From the IMG/VR virus record IMGVR_UViG_3300033151_000166, positions 1 through 64,000 of that record: a DNA stretch of 64,000 bases. One strand, given 5' to 3'. Made by a program: the position numbers and the translations under genes. The notes under the pieces are model-generated. The model made no database searches, was not told the origin of the DNA, and saw only the letters and a list, made by a program, of their open reading frames with translations. Every line of letters starts with the position of its first letter. The first letter of the stretch is position 1. Below are positions 1,329-55,629 of this stretch, piece by piece. The DNA comes from a virus.

Positions 1329-1338
1329 TGTATGTCCT

Positions 1339-4696: not shown

Positions 4697-4710
4697 AGAA
4701 GCTCCTTAAC

Positions 4711-4732: not shown

Positions 4733-4740
4733 ATAAAGAG

Positions 4741-5079: not shown

Positions 5080-5094
5080 AGTCCACCTCCAGCT

Positions 5095-6255: not shown

Positions 6256-6265
6256 TTAGGCCTCC

Positions 6266-6649
6266 TTAGATTAAGAAGAAGACGGCTACGTCTTCATCTG
6301 CTGCTGTTGCTTGTGTCAATGTAATACACTTAGTAACTTCTGTACCTGCACCTGCTTTAACATAGTCAGTTGTTGCGCCGACTGTTACTGCAACACCAGC
6401 TGCGATAGCTGCAGTTGCTTTAAACGAGTGAACACCAGAGAAGTCAACAGTACAAATGTTGTCATTAGCATTAACAGTACGAAGTACCATAAATTGAGCT
6501 GCGTCAACAGTTGCTGCAACGACTACACCTGTGGCATTAATCATAACAAAGTTTCCAATGTCAGATTTAGTAAGAGCCGGGTCCATAGGCATGGTAAGTA
6601 CACGTTTTAGAGTATACTGACCTTTGTAGAGTAAGTCTGGGTATGCCAT
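6266..6649 (-). CDS. Capsid decoration/cement protein
   Basis: 127 aa, Ala/Val/Thr-rich (ATAAIAAGVAV; ATAADEDVAV), between protease and MCP. Confidence 0.7.
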   Translation of the reverse strand: MAYPDLLYKGQYTLKRVLTMPMDPALTKSDIGNFVMINATGVVVAATVDAAQFMVLRTVNANDNICTVDFSGVHSFKATAAIAAGVAVTVGATTDYVKAGAGTEVTKCITLTQATAADEDVAVFFLI

Positions 6650-6658
6650 AGTGTCTCC

Positions 6659-7708: not shown

Positions 7709-7723
7709 TATAGATCCTTTATG

Positions 7724-9142
7724 TTAAGATGACGACTCATTGCCACGAGTGTCTCCTGCTCCGTCACCGCCTGTTACAGACCGCCCTAGTGGGTCTTCAT
7801 TAGGTGAAATATTTTCTGTGTCTACTTCAGGTCCACCATCTAGAAACAGTGTCCCTGATAAATCGTTCTCTGGAAGATGATCAATACCAAGTTCTTGAGC
7901 TGCCTCAGAGTCAGTGATGTGCCCAAAGCTTTGCAGTTGTAGAATTCTATTCTGTTTAGCAAGTCTTTGTGGTTCTAACTCTAAGTCTGGTCTAAGATTG
8001 ATTGATCTGTGTCTAACTTTGATCGAACCTTTAAGTCCCATAAGACGTGCACTCAATGTATAGGCTTGTGACATAAGCTTGTCTGCACGTTGTTGTAAGA
8101 AGGTTGGAGTATTGATAAACACCATAGTCTCAACTGAGGCGATGTTCTGTGAGCCTGAGCTTGCTTTACCTAGAATAGAAGGTAAGACCTTAAGACTAGA
8201 AGTTAGTTGACTATCAAGAACATCAACAATAGGTCTGAAGTCTACAGTCATACTACCTTGAGTGGATAAGTAGTCTACCTCGATAGAGTCAAAGATAACG
8301 ATAGCATCTTCTGGATTCAATTGAGCAAGACCTGTAGAGATATCGTTCTTCTGTTTAACGACCCACTTCTCAAGCTTCTCAGGATCCATGCGTATATCAG
8401 CTGGAGCATTCTTAATTAGAACATCTTCCAGTATAGTTACTTTGTGTCTAGGATAGCCCGCGCGTCTAATGACTCTTTGAATATCCGTAATAACCGTCTG
8501 CTTAAAAGTAACAGCTTGAATAGCTGCCAATAGAGGTGACTCTGATTGTGCTTGATCTGGATGCAAGTCAAGGTTACCGTAGAAGAAGGTTGGTATGTCA
8601 AGATTGATCTCTGTGCCCGCCGCTTCTTGAAAGGGTATGAATACACCATTCTTCTTACGCCATTTAATCTCTTTAGCTGCAACAGGGATATATCTAGTAG
8701 GTAGCTTGAACTCATCCAAGATAACTTCTAAACCAAGTCCACCAAACATGAACAGTTGCATCATGATTTGAACTGATAACTCTCTAGGATCGGGAGCTCC
8801 TACTGTTGATAACCAAGTAGCATCTAGTACTGCGATAAACTGTTTGGTCTTATCAGCATCGTACTCACCTTTTTCATTAACGAAGTATATGTCAATTTCA
8901 GTGTCTGCAAATCTAAGCACTGACCAGATAGCATTTGAACTATCGGCGTCGTACTTCTGTAGGTTCTTTAAAACTGTCTGAGTGTCTCCAGACGATCTAA
9001 TAGTGGTAGGATCAAAGTAGGCTGAGAAAGTGGCTGGTGAATACTTGTCGCCCTCTTTAACCTCAGTCTGAGTCTTAGGCTTGTTAGATGCTTTAGCACC
9101 CTTAAACAAGTTCTTAAGAGTCGGTAATTTTAAAAATTTCAA
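7724..9142 (-). CDS. Portal protein
   Basis: 472 aa between terminase and protease; LFMFGGLGLEV, VLPSILG and G(H)IT..EAAQELG portal-like motifs; TTG start with AAAGGA RBS. Confidence 0.85.
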   Translation of the reverse strand: MKFLKLPTLKNLFKGAKASNKPKTQTEVKEGDKYSPATFSAYFDPTTIRSSGDTQTVLKNLQKYDADSSNAIWSVLRFADTEIDIYFVNEKGEYDADKTKQFIAVLDATWLSTVGAPDPRELSVQIMMQLFMFGGLGLEVILDEFKLPTRYIPVAAKEIKWRKKNGVFIPFQEAAGTEINLDIPTFFYGNLDLHPDQAQSESPLLAAIQAVTFKQTVITDIQRVIRRAGYPRHKVTILEDVLIKNAPADIRMDPEKLEKWVVKQKNDISTGLAQLNPEDAIVIFDSIEVDYLSTQGSMTVDFRPIVDVLDSQLTSSLKVLPSILGKASSGSQNIASVETMVFINTPTFLQQRADKLMSQAYTLSARLMGLKGSIKVRHRSINLRPDLELEPQRLAKQNRILQLQSFGHITDSEAAQELGIDHLPENDLSGTLFLDGGPEVDTENISPNEDPLGRSVTGGDGAGDTRGNESSS

Positions 9143-9157
9143 GTCCTGTCCTTTAGA

Positions 9158-9466
9158 TTAGTTTTCTGGTCCAGTTACATCACTACCAAACAAGCTTCCA
9201 CCACCGACTGTCTGAGTCTCATTAACTGTCGCTTTAGCATCAATGGCTACACCAGTCGGGCTTTTATCTTGTGTTCTAGTTGAACCCTGACTCTCGCTAT
9301 CTATAGCAATAGGATTTCTTGCAGCTGAAGAGTGGACACGTTGTGTCTGCTGAACCTCTACAACTAAATCTCCACAAGCAACAAACATGCTAGCACTGAA
9401 CATTAACAAGATAATGTATAGATACAAATTTACAATCTTTTTATTTATCTGCATACTAGCCTCCAA
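9158..9466 (-). CDS. Putative lipoprotein
   Basis: KK plus hydrophobic stretch plus lipobox FVA-C-G; low-complexity mature part; GGAGG RBS. Confidence 0.6.
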   Translation of the reverse strand: MEASMQINKKIVNLYLYIILLMFSASMFVACGDLVVEVQQTQRVHSSAARNPIAIDSESQGSTRTQDKSPTGVAIDAKATVNETQTVGGGSLFGSDVTGPEN

Positions 9467-9504
9467 TATTTTGTAGGTTATAGTATGTGCAGACTATCGG
9501 GCAA

Positions 9505-11121
9505 TCACTTTATTACAGCGGTTGATATCATAGGTTTAGCTACGTGTTGTGTGCTGGCACCAAAGATATCTATCGCTAACTTCATGTAGCCTAGAGCATG
9601 TAAGAAGTGATCTGGTTTAACCTTAACATATCTTACTGCCTCTACCTCATCATCCTTGAGCCTCTGCTTAATCATACCGTGCATGTGCTTCTCAAAAGTA
9701 TCATACTCATTACTGACGGAGACTGCAATTTCATCTGTAGCTAGAACCTTATCATATAGCATAGTCCTATTGACTGTGACGTCTTGCTCATTTGACTTAA
9801 GTGCAAAGTAGTCTTTCTGGTTATCAGAGTAGTAACAAGTAAAGGCCTTGCCTGGTAACATATCTCTAATATCTGCCGAGAGTTTGGTCTGCGGCAGTGC
9901 GTCTAGTACCATGCCTACAATGAAGTACTTATAGATAAGCTCTTTGACTCTAGCCTTAATCTTATGCTCAGAGACCTTCTCTGTAGAACATATGACTAAG
10001 CCTTTAGGTGTAGGGAAACCTAGGACTAACCAACAGTCTTTACCGAAGTCAATTCCAATGAATAAACCGTAACTCTCAGATGGATCATACTTACCAGGTT
10101 TAAGCTTATCTGTATCAAAGATCTGATTAGCATCAATGTAGTCTTCACCCAAACCAAAGTTAACCCAGTCAGAATACAGTTCGTAGTCTTCACGTGATCT
10201 AAGTAAGTCAAACGGTCGTTGTGTCTCTGTGTGCCAAGGTCTAACCTGATAGCCTGATATGAAACGACCTGGGTGTTCAGCAACCCACTCCATAGCAGTG
10301 TACTCATTATAGTTCATAGGTCTTCTACACTTCTCACACTGCATCACTACTTGATCAGGTCCGATCATAACCAAGTCATCCAATGTAATGTTCTCAAGTG
10401 GTACATCATAATAGTCATCGTGTAGGATCTTTACGTCTCTGAAGAAGTCGTGGTTGTTCCAATGATTACAGTGTGGACACTTTTGAAGGTACTGTTTCTT
10501 AGTACTAAGTTCAAACTCTTTAGACACACCAAAGTCAGGTATAGTAGGCGTAGAGAATCTCTTAATGATCTTATGTTTAGAGTGTGATAGACGTGAGTTG
10601 TATTTACCAACAACTGCCATATCGGAGAAATCGTACTCATCTGTGATGATTGCATCTGCTGGAACTGAAATAGCTGATGAGCTTCCTTTAGTTCCCTTTA
10701 TATATAAGTAAGACTTTCCTAGTTGTTTGAGCTCTTTTGAGTCTACCTTATAATTCAATAAGTTGTGCATAAGAGGCGCCTCTTTAACGATCTCATCTAC
10801 ACGTGTAGTAGAGAAGTTAAGCGCCATGGTTCTAGTAGGTTGTGTCATGATAACAGTCAGACCTTGGTTACGTACTAAGAAAGCCAAGCCCCAACGAATA
10901 ATAATTTCTGTTAGTCCTACCTGCGAACACTTCTTAACTACCATCTGTTGAGCATTGTCATTAAGAATTTCTCTTTGGAACTCATGACCGGCAAGTGAGA
11001 AGTTACGTCCTAGTAGTTTAGTGTTAGCTTCAATCCAATCAGCATTGGTTTGACCGTGGCTTAGCAGTCCGTAGCGACCCATAAGCTCAGCTCTAAAGTT
11101 AGTTATGTAGGGATTATGCAT
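9505..11121 (-). CDS. terL: Terminase large subunit (lambda GpA-like family)
   Basis: KCSQVGLTE Walker A variant, IITDEYD Walker B, FSTPT motif, CPHC/CEKC zinc motifs, GIDFG nuclease motif, DHFLHA. Start likely the ATG at 11121. Confidence 0.92.
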   Translation of the reverse strand: MHNPYITNFRAELMGRYGLLSHGQTNADWIEANTKLLGRNFSLAGHEFQREILNDNAQQMVVKKCSQVGLTEIIIRWGLAFLVRNQGLTVIMTQPTRTMALNFSTTRVDEIVKEAPLMHNLLNYKVDSKELKQLGKSYLYIKGTKGSSSAISVPADAIITDEYDFSDMAVVGKYNSRLSHSKHKIIKRFSTPTIPDFGVSKEFELSTKKQYLQKCPHCNHWNNHDFFRDVKILHDDYYDVPLENITLDDLVMIGPDQVVMQCEKCRRPMNYNEYTAMEWVAEHPGRFISGYQVRPWHTETQRPFDLLRSREDYELYSDWVNFGLGEDYIDANQIFDTDKLKPGKYDPSESYGLFIGIDFGKDCWLVLGFPTPKGLVICSTEKVSEHKIKARVKELIYKYFIVGMVLDALPQTKLSADIRDMLPGKAFTCYYSDNQKDYFALKSNEQDVTVNRTMLYDKVLATDEIAVSVSNEYDTFEKHMHGMIKQRLKDDEVEAVRYVKVKPDHFLHALGYMKLAIDIFGASTQHVAKPMISTAVIK

Positions 11122-21249: not shown

Positions 21250-21443
21250 AGCTCATGCTAGTATGTGACTACCATCAGTTAGTTGTTATCCCTAAGAATG
21301 TTATCTGGGATAATGAGATCTTTTGGCAGATCAGTAGTACCATATACCGAGGCGAGTCTGGCTATATTAATATAGACCTAGACTCAATGACTATATTCGT
21401 CAATGACGATTTATACAAATGTAAGGAGGCACCAGATGCCTAA
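21243..21443 (+). CDS. Hypothetical beta-rich protein (paralogue of the previous gene)
   Basis: Pattern similarity to 20986-21249. Confidence 0.65.
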   Translation: MVELMLVCDYHQLVVIPKNVIWDNEIFWQISSTIYRGESGYINIDLDSMTIFVNDDLYKCKEAPDA

Positions 21444-21837
21444 GAGAAGTAGAGAACCAATATTTGAAAGTGAGCTTGGTTACATTATAACTCACGATGA
21501 CTTAGGTCATAGACCCAATTTACCTGAGTTACTAACTGAACTAACAGAGATGTGTAGTGCAATGAGTGATGGCATCGTACAAGCAGATGAGCGTCAAGAG
21601 TTGATTGCTGAACTGTTCTACTTTAGTGTTCGTGATGGTCGCCGTGTACTCAGTGTTATGGCCCCTCTAAAGCCTTGCCCATTCTGTGGTAACGATGATA
21701 TTGATGGTAAACGTGGTAGTGGCGATGATCGAGACTACTGGTACTATGAGTGTAGTCAATGTAATGTACGTCTACCACTATGCCGTACCAATAGTGATGC
21801 AATCAATGCCTGGAACACTCGTGTCGACTGCAATTGA
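21436..21837 (+). CDS. Lar-family restriction alleviation domain protein
   Basis: LKPCPFCG...ECSQC...AINAWNTR; AAGGAGG RBS before ATG 21436. Confidence 0.8.
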   Translation: MPKRSREPIFESELGYIITHDDLGHRPNLPELLTELTEMCSAMSDGIVQADERQELIAELFYFSVRDGRRVLSVMAPLKPCPFCGNDDIDGKRGSGDDRDYWYYECSQCNVRLPLCRTNSDAINAWNTRVDCN

Positions 21838-28779: not shown

Positions 28780-29355
28780 ATGAATATTACTGATACAGTG
28801 GAACGTCAATGGAATTGGCAAAAGACAATGAACTCGGATTTTGATACTATGTACTTGGCAGCGATCGAAGAAGTTGGTGAGCTCGTAGCAAGCTTTGGAT
28901 ATGCAGACTGGAAAAAGTCAGAGAGAGATACTCAGAACATTCTAGTTGAGTCAGCCGACTTATTTATCTTTGTTATCAACTGTGCATACTATGCTAAAGA
29001 ACCTATTAAAGGTCAACTCAATCCTCATATGACACCTATCGGTGACGATCGCAAATTTGCTCAGACACTCATTAGAGCACTGTCAGAGAACGATATGGAC
29101 TATCTAATCAACATTCTATTTACTGAGTACCCAATGGCATATGACTATGTAATGGCTAAGCAAGCACTTAATGCTCTACGTCAAGATCATGGCTATAAGA
29201 CTGGTGACTACATTAAAAACTGGGGTACAGATACTAAACCATACGAAGACAATAGAGCTTTATCAGCACTACTTGGTCGTGGTTTAAACTACAATGGTAT
29301 GTACTTGGAACTAAACACGCAGTATACTGCAATGATGACTACTAGACTAGGATAA
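28780..29355 (+). CDS. dut: Dimeric all-alpha dUTPase (possibly dCTPase-dUTPase)
   Basis: EEVGEL..SFGYADWKK, VESADLF and KQALNALRQDHGYKTG.Y.K.W...EDN motifs of the Campylobacter/trypanosomatid-type family. Confidence 0.88.
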   Translation: MNITDTVERQWNWQKTMNSDFDTMYLAAIEEVGELVASFGYADWKKSERDTQNILVESADLFIFVINCAYYAKEPIKGQLNPHMTPIGDDRKFAQTLIRALSENDMDYLINILFTEYPMAYDYVMAKQALNALRQDHGYKTGDYIKNWGTDTKPYEDNRALSALLGRGLNYNGMYLELNTQYTAMMTTRLG

Positions 29356-35156: not shown

Positions 35157-35365
35157 TGGATATGTCAGCAGCAGTTTTAATGGAAGTTATGACTGCTGAT
35201 ATGATGGCTAGAAGAGGGCAGATAAGTCATACTTATACGCGCTTAATGAGTCAACTATCTGGGCTACATGCATCTAAGGCTAGTCATAATCCCTGGCTAT
35301 TCACAGTGTTAAACTGTATCACGTATAAGGCAAGCTATGAGCGTAATCTTAATAGAGGGTCCTGA
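35153..35365 (+). CDS. Hypothetical protein
   Basis: ATGA overlap; AAGG RBS. Confidence 0.55.
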   Translation: MMDMSAAVLMEVMTADMMARRGQISHTYTRLMSQLSGLHASKASHNPWLFTVLNCITYKASYERNLNRGS

Positions 35366-35849
35366 CAAGTGTGGTAAAACCACGCTAGTCAAGAGTCTAA
35401 CTACGGCTGGTCTACTTCCAAGAGCAAAGCATCTACCTGATGGTCCTTTTAGACCATTGGTTATAGATGGTGCAGTGACTGGTTTAGCATCCACTTTCTT
35501 ATTCTTTGCTAATGAACAACAGTTCTGGCAAGACTATGCAACCACTCCAGGCGACTTCGTCTGTGATCGCGGTATGATATCTATGTTAGTCTATCAAGGC
35601 TATCTTCTTGGTAACATGCCACCTATTGTTATTCTTAACCTGTATAAGACGATCATGACTGATCTGAACATTACAGAGATTGTATACTTGACAAATGAAC
35701 CTTTTGAAGAGTATGATGACAATGACTTATTCGAAGCTTATGGGTACACGCAGATACGTGCCTGTTATGAAGACGCTATTAAACTTGTAGAGTCTAACTT
35801 CGCAGATATAAAAATTACCCGCTTAGATCTTTCTGTAGACACACATTAG
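35337..35849 (+). CDS. Thymidylate-kinase-like dNMP kinase
   Basis: ILIEGPDKCGKTT P-loop; CDRG..S..VYQG. Confidence 0.88.
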   Translation: MSVILIEGPDKCGKTTLVKSLTTAGLLPRAKHLPDGPFRPLVIDGAVTGLASTFLFFANEQQFWQDYATTPGDFVCDRGMISMLVYQGYLLGNMPPIVILNLYKTIMTDLNITEIVYLTNEPFEEYDDNDLFEAYGYTQIRACYEDAIKLVESNFADIKITRLDLSVDTH

Positions 35850-35941: not shown

Positions 35942-36670
35942 ATGTTATTTATTGATGCTAACAACTATGTTAAAAGAATTTATCACGGCGGTGGAAATCC
36001 TTACACGCTAATTCATGACCTACTCATGAAAAATCTGGACGTACAAATTCAATTTGTATGTGACACTAGTTCTAGTCGTAAGCCTAGACGAGAGATACAC
36101 CCTAAGTATAAGTTTGGAAGAGACATGGGTGATGACCCAGTATACTTTGAAGTTATGGAGAACTGTCAGAACATAGCTAGATGCTTTGACAATGTAACAG
36201 CTCTAAACATCATTAACGCTGAGGCTGATGATTACATCGCTAATAGTGTATCAAAAGGTGACACTGTTATCTCTAATGACCGCGATCTTTGGCCTTTAGT
36301 AAAAGACGGTGTTGAGATACTTCTTAACGCTTCTATGCGTGTAGATGAAGTGGCAATGGTACATAAGTTTGACACGAAAAATCCAGACCACATTTATCTC
36401 TATAAATGCTTAGTTGGTGACACATCAGACAAGATCCCAGGTAAACGTGGATTTGGTAAAGCTGCTTGGGGTAAATTATCTGGCTATGAAAGAGATAAAG
36501 TATGGGAAGCATTACGTACTGGTGAGGCGCATGACCTAATCAATGAGCAGGTTCTTATGTGTTATAAGCTAGCGATGCCTTTACCTATTGGCTCTTACGA
36601 AATCGAGCAGCTTGAAAACCTTAATAGAACTTCGGTTCAATATTGTGAAGACAAAGGAATTATCTTATGA
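35942..36670 (+). CDS. 5'-3' exonuclease / RNase H (FEN family)
   Basis: FIDAN, RREIHPKYK, EADD, SNDRDL and GDTSDKIPG..GFG motifs. Confidence 0.92.
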   Translation: MLFIDANNYVKRIYHGGGNPYTLIHDLLMKNLDVQIQFVCDTSSSRKPRREIHPKYKFGRDMGDDPVYFEVMENCQNIARCFDNVTALNIINAEADDYIANSVSKGDTVISNDRDLWPLVKDGVEILLNASMRVDEVAMVHKFDTKNPDHIYLYKCLVGDTSDKIPGKRGFGKAAWGKLSGYERDKVWEALRTGEAHDLINEQVLMCYKLAMPLPIGSYEIEQLENLNRTSVQYCEDKGIIL

Positions 36671-38574
36671 TCTATAACAAATCAAATATACAGGATGCAC
36701 TTGCCATCCTTAAAGACAGTCCAGAAGAGATCTGGTCTATTGACCTCGAGACATACAACCCTTACGAGAACGCCTGGTTTATGGAACTTAGCGCTAAGCA
36801 AAGACCATTGAACCGTATTGACAGTAAGATCGTGTCACTTCAGCTGGCTACACCATCTGGTATTGAGATGTACTTTGACTTTGCTCACAAGCAAGAGGGT
36901 GAAGACTTACGTCTTGACTATAAGTATCTAGGCGAGATCCTAGATCAATGTAAGTCCAATGACTTGATCGCTCACAATGCAGCCTTTGAGTATGGAATGA
37001 TCTTGCGTCATGGCTACGACTGCCCTCAAGATTACTATGATACTATGATTATGGGAGTACTATACAATGAAAACATGGCACAAGGTCTTAAGCCTACGAT
37101 TAAAACTCGTTTTGGTCACATCATGCCTAGCTACGCTGAGACTGTTGGTGACGGTACTATGGCTGATATCACTGCCATCGAAGGTTATGAATATGGTATG
37201 TCTGATGCTGATTGGACTCTTAAGCTTTATGACTGGTATGCTGAGCGCATTAGCATGGCCTATTATGAAACTTTTGAAATGGATACTATTAAAATTATCT
37301 CTCACCAGTACGCCGGAGGACAGGCTATCGATACAGACAGACTTGCAGAAATTCAAGCAGAAGATATCTTGGCTCGTGATGTAATCTTTGACAAGTTTCC
37401 TGAACTAAAAGAGATAAACATGAACAGTCCTAAGCAGGTAGCAGTGTTCTTATACGATGAGATGGGTCTTAAACCTTTTAAAGTCTCAAAGAAAACAGGA
37501 GCTCCGTCCACAGACAAAGAGTCACTGTTTGAGTTGGAGTCAGAGTATGGTAAGCAGTATCCTATTGTTAAAGCCTTCGCTGATATTCGTAAGCTTGAGA
37601 CAAGATTGAAACTATACTATCGTCCTTACCCTAAGTTGATCTATCCTGATGGACTACTACACTCAGAGATACGCCAGACTGGTACAGTTACAGGTAGATT
37701 TAGTTCTAACTCACCTAACACTCAGCAAGTAGCTAAGCGTGGTGATGGTAAGAAGGTTCGTGATGTATACATACCTCATAAAGGTCACGACTGTATCGTA
37801 TGTATTGACTGGTCTCAGATTGAGATGCGTATTGCAGCTCACATGTCTAACGACCCTAAGCTAGTTGATGGATATCTAACTGAGAAAGATATGCACACAC
37901 TGTCTGGTACAAACATCTCTGGTCTAGAGTATGATGAGATGGTAGCGCTGGTCAATGAAGAAGACTCAGAACAGAAAGCTAACCGCCAAAAAGGTAAGAC
38001 TCTAAACTTTGCATCACTATACCTAGCATCACCAATGCGTCTAGCTAAATTTGATCTATTGGATTGTACAGTGCCAGAGGCTGAGCTATTCTTATCAGCT
38101 CACAAGCTAGGTTATGAGGGATACTTCTATAACTATGTTAATAAAGTATCTCGTGATGTTAATACTAATGGCTATGTTCAAACACTATTTGGTCGTACTA
38201 GACACTTGCCTGATATTAAGTCACCGATCAGAGTTTTAAGAAGTAGTGCTGAGACTCAAGCGTTGAACGCTACGATACAGGGAACAGCTGGAGATATAAT
38301 GAAGCTTAGCTTAAACACTCTATGGTCTGAGAAACTTCTATTCTTGAAGGACTTCAGATTTATTATGCAGGTTCATGATGAATTTGTATTTAGTTGTACT
38401 CATGAAGCCGCAGCTGAATTAATGCCTAAGGTCAGAGAGATCATGCAGCGTGTACCTAAAGGTTTCAGAGTACCTATCGTTGCTGAGGTATCTATAGGAC
38501 CGAACTTTGGTGATCAGCGCGAGCTACACGGTGATCTATCACTTGAGAATATCAAGCGCAAACTCTCTTTGTAA
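36667..38574 (+). CDS. polA: Family A DNA polymerase (3'-5' exonuclease plus polymerase)
   Basis: IDLET and AHNAAF exonuclease motifs; TGRFSS, DWSQIEMR, KTLNFASLY and QVHDE polymerase motifs. Confidence 0.96.
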   Translation: MIYNKSNIQDALAILKDSPEEIWSIDLETYNPYENAWFMELSAKQRPLNRIDSKIVSLQLATPSGIEMYFDFAHKQEGEDLRLDYKYLGEILDQCKSNDLIAHNAAFEYGMILRHGYDCPQDYYDTMIMGVLYNENMAQGLKPTIKTRFGHIMPSYAETVGDGTMADITAIEGYEYGMSDADWTLKLYDWYAERISMAYYETFEMDTIKIISHQYAGGQAIDTDRLAEIQAEDILARDVIFDKFPELKEINMNSPKQVAVFLYDEMGLKPFKVSKKTGAPSTDKESLFELESEYGKQYPIVKAFADIRKLETRLKLYYRPYPKLIYPDGLLHSEIRQTGTVTGRFSSNSPNTQQVAKRGDGKKVRDVYIPHKGHDCIVCIDWSQIEMRIAAHMSNDPKLVDGYLTEKDMHTLSGTNISGLEYDEMVALVNEEDSEQKANRQKGKTLNFASLYLASPMRLAKFDLLDCTVPEAELFLSAHKLGYEGYFYNYVNKVSRDVNTNGYVQTLFGRTRHLPDIKSPIRVLRSSAETQALNATIQGTAGDIMKLSLNTLWSEKLLFLKDFRFIMQVHDEFVFSCTHEAAAELMPKVREIMQRVPKGFRVPIVAEVSIGPNFGDQRELHGDLSLENIKRKLSL

Positions 38575-38607: not shown

Positions 38608-39453
38608 TTGATGCAAAGAAAATTAAACACGGACTTCACTGAAGTCTATTACAATGTATTGAAACACGTTAAAGATGAGGGACAGTGGCAAGACAATGCT
38701 AGAACTGGTACCAAAGTTCTAGCTACTTTCGGTTACTCATTCCGTTGGGACATGAACTTCATGCCTCTATCTTCAGGTCGCAAGATGCACCTAACAACTA
38801 TGGCTGCTGAAGTAGCTTGGATGCTATCAGGTTCTACATCTATTCAATGGCTTAAGAAGTACACCAAAATCTGGAATGCTTTTGCTGATGATAAAGATGA
38901 GATACCTACTGCGTATGGTCATCGCTGGAGACACTCTTTTGGTGTTGATCAGATTCAAAACATCATCGATAAGTTAACTGAAGACCCAAGCTCTAGACAA
39001 CAAGTCTTGATGAGCTGGGATGCAAGATGTGATAATGTAGTACCAGCTGCTAACATTCCATGTCCATTCACTGCAGTGATCGCTATCATTAATGGTAAGT
39101 TAAACATACACTTGACACTAAGAAGTAATGATGTATTCTACGGTCTACCTTATGATGTTGGTATGTATACTTTCTTAGGTCAAGCCTTCGCTAGTGAGTT
39201 AGGTGTTGAGGTGGGAGAACTATTCTATAGTATCGCTCACGCTCATATCTATGAGAACCAAATGGATGCAGTTGAAGAGATGTTAACTGATAAAGTAACT
39301 CAAGGACCTCAATATAAAGTTGAGCTTAGAGCTTCAATCACTGATATCATTAGTGATAAGTCTGTATTCGTAAGACACGTGGCTGATATATATGAGCAAC
39401 TAAAGTATGAACCAGTCGTCTTAGCTAACAAGCTACCAAAAGTAGTAGAGTAA
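38608..39453 (+). CDS. ThyA-fold pyrimidine nucleotide methylase (predicted dCMP-specific)
   Basis: RTGT, catalytic PC, RSNDVFYGLPYD and HIYEN motifs; Asp at the E. coli N177 position. Confidence 0.9.
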   Translation: MMQRKLNTDFTEVYYNVLKHVKDEGQWQDNARTGTKVLATFGYSFRWDMNFMPLSSGRKMHLTTMAAEVAWMLSGSTSIQWLKKYTKIWNAFADDKDEIPTAYGHRWRHSFGVDQIQNIIDKLTEDPSSRQQVLMSWDARCDNVVPAANIPCPFTAVIAIINGKLNIHLTLRSNDVFYGLPYDVGMYTFLGQAFASELGVEVGELFYSIAHAHIYENQMDAVEEMLTDKVTQGPQYKVELRASITDIISDKSVFVRHVADIYEQLKYEPVVLANKLPKVVE

Positions 39454-39860
39454 TGAAGAAGCGGTGGACGCCAGAGTTCTGGATGGAAGTGGCTGAACTG
39501 TTTAGCAGTCAGTCTACGTGTAACAAAGCCCAGGTTGGTTGTATCCTTACTAAAGATAAGAAAATGATCGCAGCTGGTGTTAATGGCACGACCCATGGTG
39601 ATGACAACTGTTGTGAAGATGACAGTGGACACACAGAACATTGGAGAGTTCACCACGCTGAAATGAATGCCTTGGCAAAGGTAGGTACCAATGCTAAAGG
39701 CTCTGTGGCATACGTCACACTAGCACCTTGCTATGAGTGTGCTAAGAACTTAATACTATTCGGTGTCACCAAAGTATACTACGGCAGTGTCAAAGAAGAG
39801 TATGAAGATGTTCTTATATATTTAGAGTCAATGGGTGTTGACACTGAGAAGGTTGATTAA
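39453..39860 (+). CDS. dCMP deaminase
   Basis: STC...VGC, GVNG, HAEMNAL and PCYEC motifs. Confidence 0.93.
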   Translation: MKKRWTPEFWMEVAELFSSQSTCNKAQVGCILTKDKKMIAAGVNGTTHGDDNCCEDDSGHTEHWRVHHAEMNALAKVGTNAKGSVAYVTLAPCYECAKNLILFGVTKVYYGSVKEEYEDVLIYLESMGVDTEKVD

Positions 39861-39861
39861 G

Positions 39862-40179
39862 ATGGCATTAGAAGGTTTAAACGTAGGCTTCAACATGAAG
39901 ACCGTGCGTGCTGATAGAAAAGAGACGGCAGCTGAGGAAGACAAAGGTAAGATCAAACTTAATTTTAAAACAGTGGCTCGTAAGGGTGGACCTGTTACTA
40001 TAGAGTCTGAAACTATTACGTGGTGTGAAAACCGTGATGAGTCTGATGTATCTGAACTATGGAAGAGATTGTTTATTAGAAAAGAGCATACCACTGAAAT
40101 GGCTAAGCAGTACAAAGATGTTTGTCACTACCTAACTCAAAAGTATGGTTGTGACCTACCTAAAAGGAGTCATAGATGA
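39862..40179 (+). CDS. Hypothetical protein
   Basis: AAGG RBS before ATG 39862. Confidence 0.65.
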   Translation: MALEGLNVGFNMKTVRADRKETAAEEDKGKIKLNFKTVARKGGPVTIESETITWCENRDESDVSELWKRLFIRKEHTTEMAKQYKDVCHYLTQKYGCDLPKRSHR

Positions 40180-40571
40180 CAGGCATCTTATTACTATCAG
40201 AGAACAATTGTTTTGCTGATGAGGATGGTAAAGTAAGTTGGGGACCAGCAGCTGATAAGCTATGGGTTAGACGTATGATCTTTCAAAAGAAAGTCTTTGT
40301 TGGTTATCATACTTGGAAGTCTATACAGTCTCACTACTCACTACTTGATCTACCCTCGTCGTGGCAGTTTGTAAACCCAATGGACGCTACAATTCATTTT
40401 GGTGGACCAAAGTCTTTCAAGAGTTTCCCACCAGATAGATTTATTATACACAAAACTCGTACACCTATTGCTGGTATGTTCTTTGATATGAACTGGCTAG
40501 AAGATAACTACGAGCTAACAGACTCAAGCGACTGTCCTGAGTATACGGAGTTGATCTATGCCAAAAAATGA
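40176..40571 (+). CDS. Divergent dihydrofolate reductase
   Basis: W..AADKLW..., VFVGYHTWKSI (cf. VIMGRHTWESI) and FGG motifs. Confidence 0.75.
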   Translation: MTGILLLSENNCFADEDGKVSWGPAADKLWVRRMIFQKKVFVGYHTWKSIQSHYSLLDLPSSWQFVNPMDATIHFGGPKSFKSFPPDRFIIHKTRTPIAGMFFDMNWLEDNYELTDSSDCPEYTELIYAKK

Positions 40572-41001
40572 TGGTAAGTTAACTGAGCGTATATTCGATG
40601 CTCAGTTCAAAGATGAGACCGCCAGAGATATAAACTTTGTGTACTATAAATTTATCGACAGTCATGCTGCTCGTAACTTGGTACAAAACCAGCCTGCTGA
40701 TAGACTAATAATCTATATGGGAACTGTAATACTTACTGAGATCAAATCTTCTTATGACCCAATGCGTTTCCCACTGAAGAACATCTCTAAGAAACAAATT
40801 GGTACTGGAAGACGCTGGGTAGCAGCTGGTACTAAGTCTATGTTTATTATCCATAGACTACAAACAAATGAGTTCTTCTTCGTACCTCTAACTGAGGTTC
40901 TAAAGAAGATGGACAGTGGTCATAAGAGTTGGAAGTGGTCTGAGCTAGAGTACTTCAAACACGAGGCAACCTATGCGTTTTGGAAACGTTATGGTAATTA
41001 A
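40558..41001 (+). CDS. RecU-like Holliday junction resolvase
   Basis: PD-(D/E)xK pattern: PAD...TEIKS...FPLKNISKKQ. Confidence 0.8.
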   Translation: MPKNDGKLTERIFDAQFKDETARDINFVYYKFIDSHAARNLVQNQPADRLIIYMGTVILTEIKSSYDPMRFPLKNISKKQIGTGRRWVAAGTKSMFIIHRLQTNEFFFVPLTEVLKKMDSGHKSWKWSELEYFKHEATYAFWKRYGN

Positions 41002-49062: not shown

Positions 49063-52000
49063 TTAGTAAGCAGCCATCGGTATAGAGTATTGCTGTACAA
49101 CACCAGCTAAATCAATTAGTAAGATAAATTGCCACTCAGCTGAGTAGAATCCTGATGGCGGTGTTCTACCAATACTACCTGCCATGATAGCTTTATAACC
49201 AGTACCTCTTGGTATCTTAGGTAGTAAGTTATCTTGTATTGGACCTCTAGGGTCGTTGTAATTATCACCGTAGGCAAAGATTTTCTCATACAGTATTTCA
49301 GTTGTGTAGTCAGTCTTTAATAAGAACGTGGCTCTAACATGACCTATGGTTGAATAGGATAGGTTAGGGTGATTCCAATCCAGTCTCTTAATAAAGTTTC
49401 TAATATTGGTACTCTCTTGCATTGGTCTTGTGATAGAGTCACCAACAATTTCTGGTATCAAAGCATTAACTTTACCAGCTTTTCTATAGCCTGCTACACC
49501 TGAAGAGACAGCTAGTACAGTGTTAGACACACTTAGTCTAGCACTCTGAGTTGTTGGAGCTTCAGTGTAAGCTAGAGCTACTAGATCTAAAGATGCCTCA
49601 TTATAGATATTGTTGTCATAGTTAGTAACTGCCAATAATGGTCCAGGTAAATTTTCAGCTCTAGCAAACCTAGGAAGATACTCAACTCCAGTAGTCCTAT
49701 CAAAGAACACATGTGTATTGGTACCATAAATTAATACAGCTGTATTGTCTTTACCACTGAACTGCCAGTAGATTATGTTAAGGAAGTTTTTAGGAGTACT
49801 ATAAACTGGAGAGTTAATTACACCTGTAGAAAAGGCCCAACTACAAGTGGTATTATTTAATTCGTCATTGTCTAACCAACTAAAATTAATTAGATTCAAA
49901 GCGTCACCTGAAGACAGAGCATTAGATGAGAACTTATAGTTGTCCTTAGTAACACCACTAGTTGGCATAGAAGCATTAATACTAGATTGAACCGCTGCTG
50001 GGTCACCGTAGTAAGTATCATAACGAGAGTTGTATACATAGAATTCAACACCACCATCAGCTTTAACAAGACCTATTGCAGTGAGTCCTGAAGGCCATTG
50101 CTTAGGCTTAACTGACACAAAGATATCTACATAGCCAGATGTAAACTGAGACAAGCCGTTATAAAAATCAATAGCATCAGAGTTGATAGTCAATGTTCCA
50201 TCTAGATTAAGACCTACTACTACAGTTGTTCTAACATAAGTTGTTGGAGCCTCGCTATCAGGGTAGTGATAGATATCTACTTCAAAAGCACTGGTCATGT
50301 CATTGCCGTTAACTGTTTGAGCTAGCTTAGAATTGTTAGTCCAAGGATACCAGATAACACCATTAGCTTTGTGCAATGACACAAGACCATAAGCAAGTGT
50401 CTGATAACCAAAGTTATTTAGTTTAACATCAACCCAGTCCTCAGTGCTTGGAAGATCTGGTATATAACTAGTTGAAGCTGCCCAACAAATGGCTGCTCCA
50501 TTCTTCAGCATAACTGCAGCTAGACTAGAGTTAGCGTAGTATAGGGAGAGTAAACTCCCAGCTACTAAATTGGTATGTCCATCATCAACTGGCGCTAGAG
50601 CAGCTAGACTATCAGTACAATATGCTACACCTTCAGGTGTTAGACCAGAGATAAGACTGTTACTAGTAGCCCAGATCTTATCTAACTTAATACCTGGAGG
50701 TGTAAGTCTTACAACGGCTTCTGTATCTGAGTCTCTAATCATATACCATTCTTTGTTTCTAGACACGTAGTAGCCACCGACTCTGTAACCACGAATAGCT
50801 TCTATTGGATCAGGCACATCAAAGTTAGGGAACTCATCGTAAACAGTATCTGTAGACATAAAAGACCAACTATAGATAGGGTTCTGACCTAGGTAAGAAA
50901 ACCAAGATCTATAAGGACTTCTAACAAAACTTTTTGCAGCCCCACTAAGTCTACCTATCATTCTATCACTAGCATCAATAGGTGAGCTAGCTGAACAGTC
51001 CATTGTTGCCACCTCAGACAGTGGGAATTTACTATAGAACTGATTAGACTTACAGGTCATTTGAATTGTAGCACCAAATCTAGTGAATCCGTAACGCGCT
51101 GCGTGCAGTGTAATCTCTGAATTACAATGTAAATGAGCGACAGCTGTGGTACTTAAAACTGTGTCTGTGAGTATTTGATTTGTTATACGCTGTATATCAA
51201 CCAAGTCGTAATTTCCTATAATAGCTGTATGCTCATAGTTGGTTTCCATTCTATGACCGACCAATGACCTATTGCCATCTAGAACATAATCAGGTATAGC
51301 AGGCAGTGCTACATTGGATAAGAAAGTACCGTTAACATATAGATCAGCGGTGTCATCACCAAGAGCATTAGCAAATACGACTGTCATTGAGTCGTCTATC
51401 TCACTTCTATATGCCTGCATCAAACCAAACTTAGTGTATCTAGTAAGATCTAAATGAGTATCCAGAGTACCTGCTGGTATCTCGCTTAGATTATATTGAC
51501 CACCAAGTTCCCAAGGACAACCTAGTTCTGAAGGGGTATTACTAGGGCTCAGACTAAGATCATATGGTTCAGTGTTTCTATTCAAGTAGAAGTACTGATC
51601 TCTACCAGTTCGCCACATTAGATCTCCGAACATCCATTCGCCACCTAACCAGCTTGCAGTGCCAATGTGTTGATGAGTAGTAAGGCGTCTATGTAGTGTT
51701 TGTATACCTGAAGACTGCCAAGAACCACCTCTAGCGCTTATGTATCTAGCAGTTATAGGCCAATTTTGTGAGTCGTAATACATGTAACCCATTTTAGTTT
51801 CATCTAGTTTAGCTTGGAAAGTAACAAAGCTAGCGCTAGTTTGAACCTCGCCATAAGCATACACGTAGTATCGATGTACGTTTAATGATGAGACCATCTC
51901 AGGTAATAACCATTTAGGGTCTTCTCTAAATTTAAGTACCTCAGTTATAGGGAAACCAGTGAAGTTCATCTGTAGGAAGTTAACTTGAATACTGTTAGCA

Positions 52001-55000
52001 AAGTCCTCATGACTAGGTACGTAGCCAGAGCCCTCGTTTTGAAGCTTAAAACCTGATTGAGTTAGAACAACTTCACCATTCATATACCAAACAGCACTTC
52101 CATGTATGATAGACAGTATTAGTTCTACTGAGTCACCCGGAGTATAAGGAATATTAACTCTTTTAGTTGCAGTGCCATAACCAGTACTACCAAAACCAAA
52201 TCTAAGCTCATTATTTTTAGTACCTACAAAGGCTGATGAGTTACCGTTGTCATAGTAGTCCCATATACTTATAGTCTGGAAGCCAAATATCCAGCCAGAA
52301 GAACCATTAGGTAGGTGTACTATTGTTCTCATACCAAAGTTCTCATAACGTAGTTGTTCTTTAACAGGTGCTACACCATCTTGTGTGAATGGATTACCAT
52401 AGAACCGAGGTCTAGAACCCCAAGTAGACTGAGGCGCAGTTCTCGGTTCCATATTGGTATTCCAAAACTCAGCTTGGTTCTTAGCACTAGCTTTATAAGA
52501 ATTGTCATAGCTTACTTGAATGTCTTTATTGATCTTTAGTATCTCATACTTCTCACCGAAATATGAATTACAAGTCATGTGACTTTTAAGATAAGCTTGG
52601 ATACCAGAAAGAACATCTATCTCTGAGCTACCTGACATATGACAAATAGCTACATTAGGTACAGCGTGTACAGTTGCACTACCAGCGTTGAACTTAGCTC
52701 TAGGTTTATGGTCATTCTCATACTTCAGTACATAACGATCAGCATCAGACAGTGTTCTATCAAAGAACCTTACACTGTCCCAGTTACCACCGTGCATTTC
52801 AAAGCTATCCATTAGTACCATAGACCCAGTTAAGGTGTCTCGCTCTAAAGTAAGATCACCATCTATATAGACTTTAAAGTGACTATTTTCAAATTCAATA
52901 GTGACATGATAAAAGCCTTGCTCTCTAGGAATATCTGATGTTGGGTCTAGCTCAGGGTGTACACAAGGTGACATTTCTATATGATCAGCCCATAACTTAT
53001 AGACAGTGTCAGCTCCGGAATAATCAGCCGCCTGAGTCACAGCACAAACGACTGAGACTTGAGAGGTTGGGCTTGCTTGACCAAAAGAATTAGGTATTAA
53101 CTCAAATTTCATACCTTGGTATTCTGAATCTCCACTAGCATGTTGTGCCTCTATAACTATGGGACTGCCCCAGGTATTCTCAGCGTCACCTATAGGTGGG
53201 CACCAAGCTGAATTAGACACATGAAAAGACATGGCCCATAGAGTATTAGAAGTTAACCAAGCTGCTACGTCAGGTGAACCATAACCGAGAGTTCCTGCTT
53301 GATCAAATCTACCAACTCTATGCCCTTCTACACCATTAGCGGAGCGAAAGATAGGTACAAAACCTTGAGCACCTATAGTTCCGTTAGGCCAAAAACCTAG
53401 ACAAGAGCCGTCCTCGAAGATATCAAATATCTGATCAGTGTTAAAAGGTAAAGGATATCTCCAACCAGCGACTGTTAAGTCACTACTAGAGCCAACTAGA
53501 TGAGCCTTAGGTCCAGGAATAGACTGACCTTTAGCTGTAAATCTATACACTTGTGGGTACAGTGTGATAAAAGGAGTGTAGGCTCTAATGTTTATAGCTT
53601 CGCCCTGTAGGTGCGCACTACCATATACTAGATAGAAACCACCTTCTACGTCTAGAGTAGCTGTACCTTGTAGGTTACCGAAAGCTTTAGGTCTAGCATG
53701 TGAAGTAGCTGAGGCACTAAGATGAGACTCTGTAGCACCAAGGTGTTTAGCTAGAACACCGTTTCTTGTACTTTGAGTTATCTCTTGGTCATAGTACTGT
53801 ACAAACTGTATACTAATAGCATTAGCAGAGCTATGAATTGGATGACTAACTGCAGTGCCATTTGAAGCTGGTGCTCTAGCGGTCAATGTTACACTAGCTT
53901 TGATCACACCATCAATACGTATAATGTATGTGGCTTGAGTACCATTAAGAATCTTTTGAACCTCTAGTAGATACGTATTGCCAACGCCATTATGTGGTAT
54001 GTTACCAAAGTTATATGAAGTACCGTTAAGACGCATACTCATACCAACGTAAGTTGAAGCTAGAGTACCATTTATATAGATGTACTCGCCAGTAGGGTGG
54101 TAACACTGATACATAGTTCCACCAGAAGCATTTAGTCTGATACTAGCAAAGTAAGACCAACTAACATATTTAGGGAAGAACGTGTATGATGTACGACCAA
54201 ACCTAGCATAGCCAGAGGTAGGTCGCATTGCTGTACCCTCAGGTAAAACTACGTAGGTCCAAGAACCCGTAGAGTAGTTATGCGTTAAACCAGTGACACT
54301 ATCAAGTGTGTTATTGTCAAAATCAAGGTTGTGAATTAACTTAGGTCCAAAATGTGTAGCACCAGCATCAGCAAAAACTGTAGCACCACCACTTAGAATA
54401 GACTCGCCCCACTCTCTATAGCTACCGGCTTCAGCATCAGCAAATAGATTAGCTTGCTGACTCAAGTGTGACGTACCGAGATAGTTGTACCAAGTATAGA
54501 CAACGTCTAAAGTAGCTGAAGCACTAAGATCAAAAGTAAAGTACCATAGACCACGAATAAACGACAGTACATCTAAAGTAGCTGAAGCAGTGAGCGGTGC
54601 GTTAAAATATAAATAACCTCTGATAGTAGGCACTATATTGACAGTTGCTGTCTCACTCAACACGGAGTCAAAGTACAAGTACCCACGTATAATAGGCACA
54701 ACATCAGGTAAGTAGGCTGAGCTACTTAGTATACTAGAACCTAGTACGTCACCTCTAAGAGTAACTGCGGTAGTCGCTTTACCATAAAGTCTACCTTCAC
54801 CTAGCGTTGGTCCAGTAGTGAAGCTGGTAGCATTACTTATAGCCTCACCAGCCAATCTAGTTCTAGAATCTTGTTCAACTGTTACTCTTATGTTAATAGG
54901 TAAGATCTCAGAAAAACCACTTGTACTATAAGGTCTTACTCCAAAATAGTACTGACCTATAGCCGATAAGAAACTACCATCATTATGAGCTAGACTAGCC

Positions 55001-55629
55001 ATAGTTGGATCATAAGCTTCTAGACGTTCTTGAATCCAATAAGGTTCGCCATTCTCAGTAGTCTCTATACCTGGATCATCGTCCTCGTGTACTAGATAAG
55101 TATTATCGTCAGGTGGTGTATTAGTAGCTGCATACAACTGAATGACTGTATCAATCCAAGGGTCATCCCAGTAAGCATCTGTTTGAATAGTTTCAACACC
55201 AACTAGTAAACCAGTAGTATCAAAAGGCTCACTGTTAATGTACAGTTGACCATCAGCGGGTGCTAGAACATACTCGTAAGTACCTGTTTTTATAGGGAAG
55301 GTTGAACTTAATTCTCTACCTAGATTTGACTCTGCTAGTACAGCTGCTGAACCAGCTAAGTCAGCTTGCTTGATTTTATTAAGAGACGCTTGAACAGTAG
55401 CTGAACCAACTAGTACAGTGCTGAAGTTAGGTCTTGCAACTGTACTCGCTGAACCACTAAGTCTAGCTGCGACTATCTTTAACAGTAGTGTACCAGAACC
55501 CTGTAATTCTGAAGAGCTACGAAGTAATGGCGTGGCTATACTAGTTACTAAAGCTGAACCAGATATAATGATGATAGAGCTGTCTTCAGACCACCCTTGG
55601 GCCGCATAGCCAGTTACTACGTAATTCAA
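49063..55629 (-). CDS. Giant modular tail-fibre/adhesin (2188 aa)
   Basis: Blocks of scaffold repeats alternate with LamG/concanavalin-like domains (LDFDNNTLD; WDSVRFFDRTLS); propeller-like C-terminal region; TTG start. Confidence 0.75.
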   Translation of the reverse strand: MNYVVTGYAAQGWSEDSSIIIISGSALVTSIATPLLRSSSELQGSGTLLLKIVAARLSGSASTVARPNFSTVLVGSATVQASLNKIKQADLAGSAAVLAESNLGRELSSTFPIKTGTYEYVLAPADGQLYINSEPFDTTGLLVGVETIQTDAYWDDPWIDTVIQLYAATNTPPDDNTYLVHEDDDPGIETTENGEPYWIQERLEAYDPTMASLAHNDGSFLSAIGQYYFGVRPYSTSGFSEILPINIRVTVEQDSRTRLAGEAISNATSFTTGPTLGEGRLYGKATTAVTLRGDVLGSSILSSSAYLPDVVPIIRGYLYFDSVLSETATVNIVPTIRGYLYFNAPLTASATLDVLSFIRGLWYFTFDLSASATLDVVYTWYNYLGTSHLSQQANLFADAEAGSYREWGESILSGGATVFADAGATHFGPKLIHNLDFDNNTLDSVTGLTHNYSTGSWTYVVLPEGTAMRPTSGYARFGRTSYTFFPKYVSWSYFASIRLNASGGTMYQCYHPTGEYIYINGTLASTYVGMSMRLNGTSYNFGNIPHNGVGNTYLLEVQKILNGTQATYIIRIDGVIKASVTLTARAPASNGTAVSHPIHSSANAISIQFVQYYDQEITQSTRNGVLAKHLGATESHLSASATSHARPKAFGNLQGTATLDVEGGFYLVYGSAHLQGEAINIRAYTPFITLYPQVYRFTAKGQSIPGPKAHLVGSSSDLTVAGWRYPLPFNTDQIFDIFEDGSCLGFWPNGTIGAQGFVPIFRSANGVEGHRVGRFDQAGTLGYGSPDVAAWLTSNTLWAMSFHVSNSAWCPPIGDAENTWGSPIVIEAQHASGDSEYQGMKFELIPNSFGQASPTSQVSVVCAVTQAADYSGADTVYKLWADHIEMSPCVHPELDPTSDIPREQGFYHVTIEFENSHFKVYIDGDLTLERDTLTGSMVLMDSFEMHGGNWDSVRFFDRTLSDADRYVLKYENDHKPRAKFNAGSATVHAVPNVAICHMSGSSEIDVLSGIQAYLKSHMTCNSYFGEKYEILKINKDIQVSYDNSYKASAKNQAEFWNTNMEPRTAPQSTWGSRPRFYGNPFTQDGVAPVKEQLRYENFGMRTIVHLPNGSSGWIFGFQTISIWDYYDNGNSSAFVGTKNNELRFGFGSTGYGTATKRVNIPYTPGDSVELILSIIHGSAVWYMNGEVVLTQSGFKLQNEGSGYVPSHEDFANSIQVNFLQMNFTGFPITEVLKFREDPKWLLPEMVSSLNVHRYYVYAYGEVQTSASFVTFQAKLDETKMGYMYYDSQNWPITARYISARGGSWQSSGIQTLHRRLTTHQHIGTASWLGGEWMFGDLMWRTGRDQYFYLNRNTEPYDLSLSPSNTPSELGCPWELGGQYNLSEIPAGTLDTHLDLTRYTKFGLMQAYRSEIDDSMTVVFANALGDDTADLYVNGTFLSNVALPAIPDYVLDGNRSLVGHRMETNYEHTAIIGNYDLVDIQRITNQILTDTVLSTTAVAHLHCNSEITLHAARYGFTRFGATIQMTCKSNQFYSKFPLSEVATMDCSASSPIDASDRMIGRLSGAAKSFVRSPYRSWFSYLGQNPIYSWSFMSTDTVYDEFPNFDVPDPIEAIRGYRVGGYYVSRNKEWYMIRDSDTEAVVRLTPPGIKLDKIWATSNSLISGLTPEGVAYCTDSLAALAPVDDGHTNLVAGSLLSLYYANSSLAAVMLKNGAAICWAASTSYIPDLPSTEDWVDVKLNNFGYQTLAYGLVSLHKANGVIWYPWTNNSKLAQTVNGNDMTSAFEVDIYHYPDSEAPTTYVRTTVVVGLNLDGTLTINSDAIDFYNGLSQFTSGYVDIFVSVKPKQWPSGLTAIGLVKADGGVEFYVYNSRYDTYYGDPAAVQSSINASMPTSGVTKDNYKFSSNALSSGDALNLINFSWLDNDELNNTTCSWAFSTGVINSPVYSTPKNFLNIIYWQFSGKDNTAVLIYGTNTHVFFDRTTGVEYLPRFARAENLPGPLLAVTNYDNNIYNEASLDLVALAYTEAPTTQSARLSVSNTVLAVSSGVAGYRKAGKVNALIPEIVGDSITRPMQESTNIRNFIKRLDWNHPNLSYSTIGHVRATFLLKTDYTTEILYEKIFAYGDNYNDPRGPIQDNLLPKIPRGTGYKAIMAGSIGRTPPSGFYSAEWQFILLIDLAGVVQQYSIPMAAY

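Follow-up and report, generated by a model that had tools for sequence, protein, structure and literature searches.

A phage gene cassette predicted to make 5-methyl-dCMP and to recycle folate through a minimal dihydrofolate reductase-like protein

We analyzed a 64-kb stretch of viral DNA (positions 1 to 64,000 of IMG/VR record IMGVR_UViG_3300033151_000166; "the window" below means this whole stretch), focusing on a homologue of thymidylate synthase (TS) and the genes that follow it. The record, of which the window is a part, totals 75,676 bp and was rated 100% complete by CheckV; the source sample was likely a hydrothermal-vent metagenome. The TS homologue lies in a plus-strand replication module (26-44 kb of the window), the gene order of which was read from open reading frames (ORFs) and profile matches. 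It heads a cassette of four genes, in which deoxycytidine monophosphate (dCMP) is the predicted starting substrate and the last gene product resembles dihydrofolate reductase (DHFR):

38611..39453, plus strand: TS-family enzyme (PF00303), predicted from its residue signature to be a dCMP C5-methyltransferase (5-methyl-dCMP synthase) of the type found in phage Xp12
39453..39860, plus strand: small zinc-dependent (deoxy)cytidylate deaminase (PF00383, phrog_174)
39862..40179, plus strand: ORF without assigned function between the deaminase and the DHFR, 105 amino acids from its ATG (GTG 39835 is also possible)
40176..40571, plus strand: 131-amino-acid protein with a DHFR fold, assigned by fold and remote homology

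Starts and stops overlapped at three junctions of the cassette (39453, where the deaminase start overlaps the TS stop; 40176-40179; and 40558-40571), which is compatible with a single operon.

The TS homologue starts at ATG 38611, or at the alternative TTG 38608, and matched the Pfam family Thymidylat_synt (PF00303) with an E value of 1.2e-56 and 192.2 bits (curated cut-off, 24.3). The initial annotation had singled out two motifs in this gene, and both were read in frame in the raw sequence: CCA TGT CCA (Pro-Cys-Pro, PCP) at 39058-39066 and GGT CTA CCT TAT GAT (GLPYD), with GAT at 39154-39156. HMMER alignment to solved thymidylate synthases and MAFFT alignment to E. coli ThyA placed the Asp at E. 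coli Asn177 and the Pro at His147 (E. coli numbering is used throughout), so that the enzyme departs from a canonical ThyA at both of its defining positions. A contig from a second study, a sediment metagenome (run X2), spanned 38844-39534 with 0 differences and included both motifs; thus, they do not reflect an assembly error. Four other runs (X3-X6) matched small parts of the window only and were not used to assign a habitat. Cys146, Arg21, Glu58, Tyr94, Arg126, Arg166, Ser167, Asp169, His207 and Tyr209 were all kept and, judged by its sequence, the enzyme is a member of the PF00303 superfamily with its catalytic residues intact. The full signature read F83, A93, Q127, N143, C146, P147 and D177, with Asn143 lying in an ANIPC motif. 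Asn177 sets the specificity for uracil, and its change to Asp shifts the preference to dCMP (Liu and Santi 1992; Hardy and Nalivaika 1992; as cited in PMC8670742), and in the MetaGPA study no TS residues were more strongly associated with contigs of modified cytosine than those at positions 147 and 177 (PMC8670742).

Apart from Gln127, the same signature occurs in Xp12, in whose DNA 5-methylcytosine (5mC) replaces all cytosine (genome, GenBank MT664984; PMC7653180) and whose dCMP methyltransferase activity was first described in 1978, according to a citation in PMC5175136. The window and Xp12 enzymes were 34% identical (E = 6e-42). Beyond Tyr209, 66 residues follow in the window enzyme, 61 in Xp12, 55 in E. 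coli ThyA and 28 in T4 gp42; by its length, the window tail is TS-like and could close over the cofactor for hydride transfer, and it ends in PKVVE, compared to PEVIE in Xp12. The alignment with ThyA and with dCMP methylases and hydroxymethylases, a comparison suggested by the initial annotation, placed the window with the Xp12 methylase at every marker except residue 127.

Key positions were tabulated for 85 database homologues and for reference enzymes. Among the 78 Asp177 homologues (window and Xp12 included), Phe83 was present in all and Ala93, Asn143 and Pro147 in nearly all; substitutions shared so widely show that the window motifs did not arise by chance. The nine canonical TS rows carried Val, Ile or Leu (Gly in one) at position 93, together with Leu143, His147 and Asn177, and Trp83 was found in 4/9. 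A third, small set combined Asp143, Asn147 and Asn177, the pattern that would be expected for a dUMP hydroxymethylase with an acidic water activator and a uracil-specifying Asn; five of these proteins (P0078, P0081, P0083, P0084 and P0086) have 111-137 residues beyond Tyr209. Two Asp177 homologues of 432-434 amino acids (P0019 and P0021) additionally have a PF13392 (HNH_3) domain, as if a homing endonuclease had been fused to, or inserted into, the methylase gene. In a FastTree of 106 sequences, a quick tree in which T4 gp42 sat on a very long branch, 26 proteins with Asn143-Pro147-Asp177 (Asn-Pro-Asp) and 8 canonical TS formed one set with a support of 100, leaving out 69 T4-like and 3 Asp143/Asn177 proteins. 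This grouping suggests that the split runs between methyl-forming and hydroxymethyl-forming enzymes. A quick IQ-TREE run returned the three Asp177 subclades and TS as an unresolved polytomy.

Gene linkage was surveyed in IMG/VR. A first, single-protein scan had recovered distant TS genes only; a pattern search then gave 351 relatives, the best 80 of which were taken with 5-kb flanks and scanned with profiles for TS, the deaminase, the Xp12-type DHFR and the minimal DHFR of the window (mini-DHFR; see below). Twelve loci were of the Asn-Pro-Asp type. A DHFR gene lay within 5 kb in 11/12 of them and a deaminase gene in 11/12, and the sequence of the one locus that lacks a DHFR stops about 1 kb past the TS gene. 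The other 68 loci (L034-L101) were of the T4-like type (Asp143-Thr/Asn147-Asp177); they had a DHFR within 5 kb in 0/68 cases and a deaminase in 9/68. The difference in DHFR linkage was significant (Fisher's exact p, 1e-12), and the counts stayed the same with a broader DHFR profile, to which E. coli FolA, T4 Frd and a DHFR-TS fusion had been added. The DHFRs were of two types, five mini-DHFRs in the closest relatives of the window and six canonical-like DHFRs in the Xp12-like group. This association of two distinct DHFR types with two distinct Asn-Pro-Asp subclades backs the argument, already made in the initial annotation, that a linked DHFR points to reductive methylation: a reductase is needed because this reaction oxidizes folate, which hydroxymethylation does not. 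In T4 itself, frd adjoins td, the methyl-forming TS gene, and not gene 42. The five nearest IMG/VR relatives all combined TS, deaminase and the same mini-DHFR; in one close relative (L024), the order was TS, mini-DHFR, deaminase. The 68 T4-like loci probably encode dCMP hydroxymethylases, judging by these residues, and such genes are generally labelled thymidylate synthase.

That the cassette includes a DHFR, as the initial annotation stated, was confirmed by fold only. The 131-amino-acid ORF gave no Pfam or PHROG match, even at an E value of 10 (PF00186/DHFR_1 included), and BLASTP brought out no meaningful similarity to the DHFR of Xp12, which, by contrast, matches PF00186. A phmmer search of the PDB returned DHFRs in 40/40 matches (best E value, 0.0024), collinear over residues 18-50. 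While a word-index homologue search returned only the query itself, a HMMER search run exhaustively against 1.8 billion representatives yielded 17 mini-DHFR relatives of 114-157 amino acids, and all 72 matches of the family profile were DHFRs (best E value, 7.6e-4). AlphaFold2 reached a pLDDT of 94.1 with the 17-sequence alignment, compared to an unusable 43 from the single sequence, and the 50 top-ranked Foldseek matches listed for the model were all DHFRs (probability, 1.00; TM, 0.64-0.76). At the level of the model, a DHFR fold is thereby established. Asp27 (catalytic), Gly77 (of the Gly-Gly motif) and Gly100 were invariant in the family, Thr46 was nearly so, and Trp22 and Trp30 aligned with E. 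coli DHFR. Compared to E. coli DHFR, about 28 residues are missing from the adenosine-binding subdomain, in the 50-90 region; Arg57, which binds the folate carboxylate, had no counterpart, and no conserved Arg occurred in the 50-90 stretch. We predict from this model that the protein recycles the dihydrofolate made by the methylase. Should it be active, it would rank with the smallest known reductases of the DHFR fold, and its cofactor binding might be altered. The family (window 40176-40571 and P0088-P0103) is invisible to Pfam and PHROGs, and every member located in IMG/VR lay beside an Asn-Pro-Asp methylase gene.

The product of the second gene matched PF00383 (E = 1.8e-21), in agreement with the initial annotation, as well as phrog_174 (E = 2.4e-35), and contains HAE (residues 68-70) and PCxxC (residues 92-96) motifs. 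Its top solved relative was 4p9c, a deoxycytidylate deaminase of 138 amino acids (E = 7e-22), and it was 29% identical to the Xp12 deaminase (E = 6e-9). In Xp12, Donnerlittchen, RDJL Phi 2, Tedan and Axy16, the deaminase gene sits at the corresponding place. Of the dCMP deaminase genes on predicted modified-cytosine contigs, 70% lay at most 3 kb from a TS homologue, most deaminase-linked TS homologues carried dCMP-favouring residues, and genes for PRA-PH pyrophosphatase and PolA were often found nearby (bioRxiv 10.1101/2024.12.05.627091). In the same work, 5-methyldeoxycytidine (5mdC) was made in E. coli by the Xp12 TS homologue and by 5/7 metagenomic homologues, and the mSCD-B5 deaminase converted 5mdCTP to dTTP and was proposed as a substitute for a dUMP-dependent thymidylate synthase (bioRxiv 10.1101/2024.12.05.627091). 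The window deaminase is predicted to convert 5-methyl-dC nucleotides and thereby to supply thymidylate, with a plain dCMP deaminase as the alternative. For the ORF at 39862-40179, neither Pfam nor PHROGs gave a match and the protein atlas offered no credible one; a gene is missing at this place in Xp12, Donnerlittchen and RDJL Phi 2.

Three further genes upstream of the cassette, all of them named in the initial annotation, were recovered:

28780..29355, plus strand: all-alpha nucleoside triphosphate pyrophosphatase of the dimeric dUTPase family (PF08761 dUTPase_2, 25.1 bits; cut-off, 22.9)
35337..35849, plus strand: P-loop deoxynucleoside monophosphate (dNMP) kinase, a thymidylate-kinase relative (phrog_761, E = 1.9e-10)
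36667..38574, plus strand: family A DNA polymerase (PolA), directly upstream of the cassette (PF00476, E = 2.8e-82)

The thymidylate-kinase matches were weak (sub-cut-off Pfam matches to PF02223, E = 9e-4, and AAA_28, E = 3.6e-4), and the kinase is a candidate for the phosphorylation of 5-methyl-dCMP. PDB matches of the 28780 protein were dimeric dUTPases (e.g., 1w2y; E = 3e-7). The T4 dCTPase/dUTPase gp56 belongs to the same Pfam family (PF08761, 25.4 bits), and direct comparison of the two proteins gave a marginal match (E = 0.024); BLASTP detected no similarity to the PRA-PH pyrophosphatase of Donnerlittchen. A role as a dCTPase/dUTPase that excludes dCTP and supplies dCMP is plausible on these grounds. 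The genome contained one TS-family gene, and a search of it for ThyX, C5 DNA methyltransferases and trimeric dUTPases gave no match. A search for Tet_JBP also gave no match, yet its control was silent as well, and the result is hence uninformative.

From sequence homology, the signature of the active site, the fold, the gene order and the co-occurrence of genes, we infer a pathway; what each enzyme does, at which phosphorylation level the deaminase works and how much of the cytosine in the DNA is replaced are all part of this inference. The TS homologue would convert dCMP, with methylene-tetrahydrofolate as the donor of both carbon and hydride, to 5-methyl-dCMP and dihydrofolate, and the small DHFR, encoded 720 bases downstream, would reduce dihydrofolate to tetrahydrofolate. 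The phage dNMP kinase and the host nucleoside diphosphate kinase would then raise 5-methyl-dCMP to the triphosphate. PolA would incorporate 5-methyl-dCTP, and virion DNA would contain 5mC largely or wholly instead of cytosine. Part of the 5-methyl-dC nucleotide pool would be turned by the adjacent deaminase into thymidine nucleotides, in a genome without a dUMP-specific synthase, while the gp56-like pyrophosphatase would probably hydrolyse dCTP and dUTP, keeping them from the DNA and feeding dCMP to the methylase. We consider it likely that the window enzyme is an Xp12-type dCMP methylase in a 5mC pathway, which is the activity that the initial annotation had assigned; the Asn143, Pro147, Asp177 and Phe83 residues and the tail shared with Xp12, and the grouping with TS, support this reading at the sequence level. 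Full replacement of cytosine by 5mC in virion DNA is probable as well, with somewhat less assurance. More tentatively, the lineage may run a self-contained 5-methylcytosine and thymidylate pathway in which folate is recycled by a previously unclassified minimal DHFR of roughly 130 residues, with helix alpha-E, strand beta-D and Arg57 all missing.

The methylase and deaminase could instead serve solely as a two-step thymidylate route (dCMP to 5-methyl-dCMP to dTMP), with the virion cytosine ordinary or partly substituted. The deaminase gene follows the methylase gene immediately, with overlapping stop and start, and no other thymidylate synthase is present in the genome; moreover, the closest relative of the deaminase with a solved structure works on monophosphates, and the 28780 protein is a putative dCTPase only. 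However, Xp12 and PaMx74, the characterized phages with such a cassette, have complete replacement of cytosine by 5mC, and the deaminase that has been studied used the triphosphate, so that 5-methyl-dCTP is formed and available to the polymerase (bioRxiv 10.1101/2024.12.05.627091). The presence of a phage dNMP kinase and a gp56-family pyrophosphatase likewise argues against a pure thymidylate route, which we regard as unlikely. The initial annotation had presented incorporation into DNA and deamination to dTMP as alternatives; the two are reported to run side by side in Xp12-type phages (bioRxiv 10.1101/2024.12.05.627091).

An enzyme resembling the T4 dCMP hydroxymethylase gp42, which would yield DNA with 5-hydroxymethylcytosine or a derivative, is considerably less probable. 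T4 gp42 (Val83, Asp145 at position 143, Thr149 at 147 and Asp179 at 177) shares Asp177 with the window enzyme, and both have a Ser/Thr-x-Tyr motif before Tyr94, which Park et al. (PMC6400193) also listed for hydroxymethylases. This motif reads T-A-Y in the window, S-N-Y in T4 and S-A-Y in Xp12; its occurrence in a proven methylase indicates that it tracks cytosine specificity and not hydroxylation. The signature proper of hydroxymethylases consists of an Asp placed three residues ahead of the catalytic Cys, where it activates the substrate water, and the loss of the C-terminal tail, which in TS seals the active site for hydride transfer; the D145N exchange abolished the activity of the T4 enzyme (PMC6400193). 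The window enzyme has neither feature, carrying Asn at position 143 and a long TS-like tail in place of a very short C-terminus. Further evidence against hydroxymethylation comes from the clustering of the enzyme with TS, apart from the 69 T4-like sequences, and from the linked DHFR, seen at none of the 68 T4-like loci. No glycosyl- or other transferase that decorates hydroxymethylcytosine was recognized among the scanned ORFs, many of which had no match at all. An ordinary dUMP-dependent TS with an odd active site, working with the deaminase (dCMP to dUMP) and the DHFR in what is also the classical trio of the thymidylate cycle, would agree with the public annotation of all homologues as 'thymidylate synthase', yet it is scarcely credible given that the change from Asn177 to Asp switches the preference to dCMP (cited in PMC8670742), that the clade co-varies at positions 83, 93, 143, 147 and 177 and differs there from the true TS recovered by the same searches, and that 5mdC is made by the Xp12 homologue, in which these residues are identical.

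Several points weigh against the proposed Xp12-type methylase pathway. The case for this phage is built from sequence and model evidence, and the identity to the validated Xp12 enzyme is no higher than the 34% given above, with Gln in the window and Arg in Xp12 at position 127. In the quick IQ-TREE analysis, the 45-member subclade of the window was separate from that of Xp12, and two of the seven similarly predicted homologues gave no 5mdC (bioRxiv 10.1101/2024.12.05.627091). The linkage counts of 11/12 and 0/68 are not phylogenetically independent. 4p9c, the nearest solved relative of the deaminase, was deposited as a deoxycytidylate deaminase, and the selectivity of such deaminases for 5mC has been described as polyphyletic and not predictable from sequence (bioRxiv 10.1101/2024.12.05.627091). 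The loss of about 28 adenosine-subdomain residues and of Arg57 leaves the reductase activity of the mini-DHFR a prediction, and the dCTPase role of the 28780 protein is drawn from family membership.

The module reads, in order, DNA ligase, all-alpha pyrophosphatase, primase and helicase, sigma factor, dNMP kinase, 5'-3' exonuclease, PolA, TS homologue, deaminase, the 105-amino-acid ORF, the 131-amino-acid ORF, RecU-like resolvase and SbcCD. The gene for the RecU-like Holliday junction resolvase (40558-41001, plus strand) directly follows the DHFR ORF; the DHFR gene of Donnerlittchen is likewise followed by a 'putative nuclease'. In the early region, the ORF at 21403-21837 (plus strand) contains a domain of the restriction-alleviation type (Lar; PF14354, E = 4.8e-9) and would give the phage a second means of countering restriction. 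The 76-kb genome has two giant ORFs, one of 2188 amino acids at 49063-55629 (minus strand) of the window and one of more than 3333 amino acids at 3-10001 (minus strand) of L021, both in minus-strand blocks that hold structural genes; the 11.7 kb of the record beyond the window are nearly all one giant ORF. A nucleotide search with the cassette against 50,697 phage records gave no match, and the top matches of the capsid protein and PolA among cultured phages were at most about 31% identical. By these comparisons, the phage represents a lineage without a close cultured relative.

The predicted pathway adds a divergent uncultured lineage from vent and sediment to the phages thought to swap cytosine for 5mC, which bears on restriction escape and on the behaviour of metagenomic DNA in methylation-sensitive library methods. 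The linkage survey also suggests an annotation rule for genes labelled "thymidylate synthase": Asn-Pro-Asp at positions 143/147/177 with a linked DHFR would mark methylases, and Asp-Thr/Asn-Asp with no linked DHFR would mark hydroxymethylases. The compact DHFR family may also be of use, as may the small deaminase, a candidate for screens for 5mC-selective enzymes in methylome sequencing.

The system as such is already described, and the window is a divergent further instance of the Xp12 type. The initial annotation's proposal of a dCMP-methylase pathway is supported, but it did not identify this as the Xp12 pathway, which was already known and has its genes in the same order. The Xp12 cassette (MT664984) comprises PRA-PH pyrophosphatase, TS homologue, deaminase and DHFR, and the window shares the order TS, deaminase, DHFR. 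Both enzymes have the TS fold, Asn143, Pro147, Asp177, Phe83, Ala93, the S/T-A-Y motif and a tail that ends in two hydrophobic residues and Glu. Unlike the window, Xp12 has no 105-amino-acid ORF between deaminase and DHFR, and its DHFR is canonical-like and not a minimal protein of 131 amino acids. In Xp12-like phages, the PRA-PH pyrophosphatase gene lies directly upstream of the TS gene, whereas the window has a pyrophosphatase of the dUTPase_2 family 10 kb upstream, and the phage backbones of Xp12 and the window are unrelated. Donnerlittchen and RDJL Phi 2 have TS, deaminase and an annotated DHFR in the order of the window; Tedan and Axy16 have a hypothetical protein at the DHFR position. 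With T4 gp42 the window shares Asp at position 177 for cytosine and the logic of dCTP removal, dNMP kinase (gp1 in T4) and incorporation; the two differ in that the T4 enzyme has Asp145, Thr149, a short C-terminus and no linked DHFR, compared to Asn, Pro, a long tail and a linked DHFR in the window. An engineered L. casei TS, N229D/H199A, is reportedly a dCMP methylase, and the window enzyme differs naturally from TS at these two positions (177 and 147 in E. coli), with F83, A93, N143 and Q127 as further co-varying residues. The mSCD systems from MetaGPA and IMG/VR resemble the window in their PF00383 deaminase beside an Asp177 TS homologue (bioRxiv 10.1101/2024.12.05.627091, PMC8670742), and their neighbourhood profile, with PolA and an all-alpha pyrophosphatase nearby, is also that of the window (bioRxiv 10.1101/2024.12.05.627091). 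Compared to these systems, the minimal DHFR family and the rule combining residues 143 and 147 with a linked DHFR are the only elements that go slightly beyond the literature consulted.

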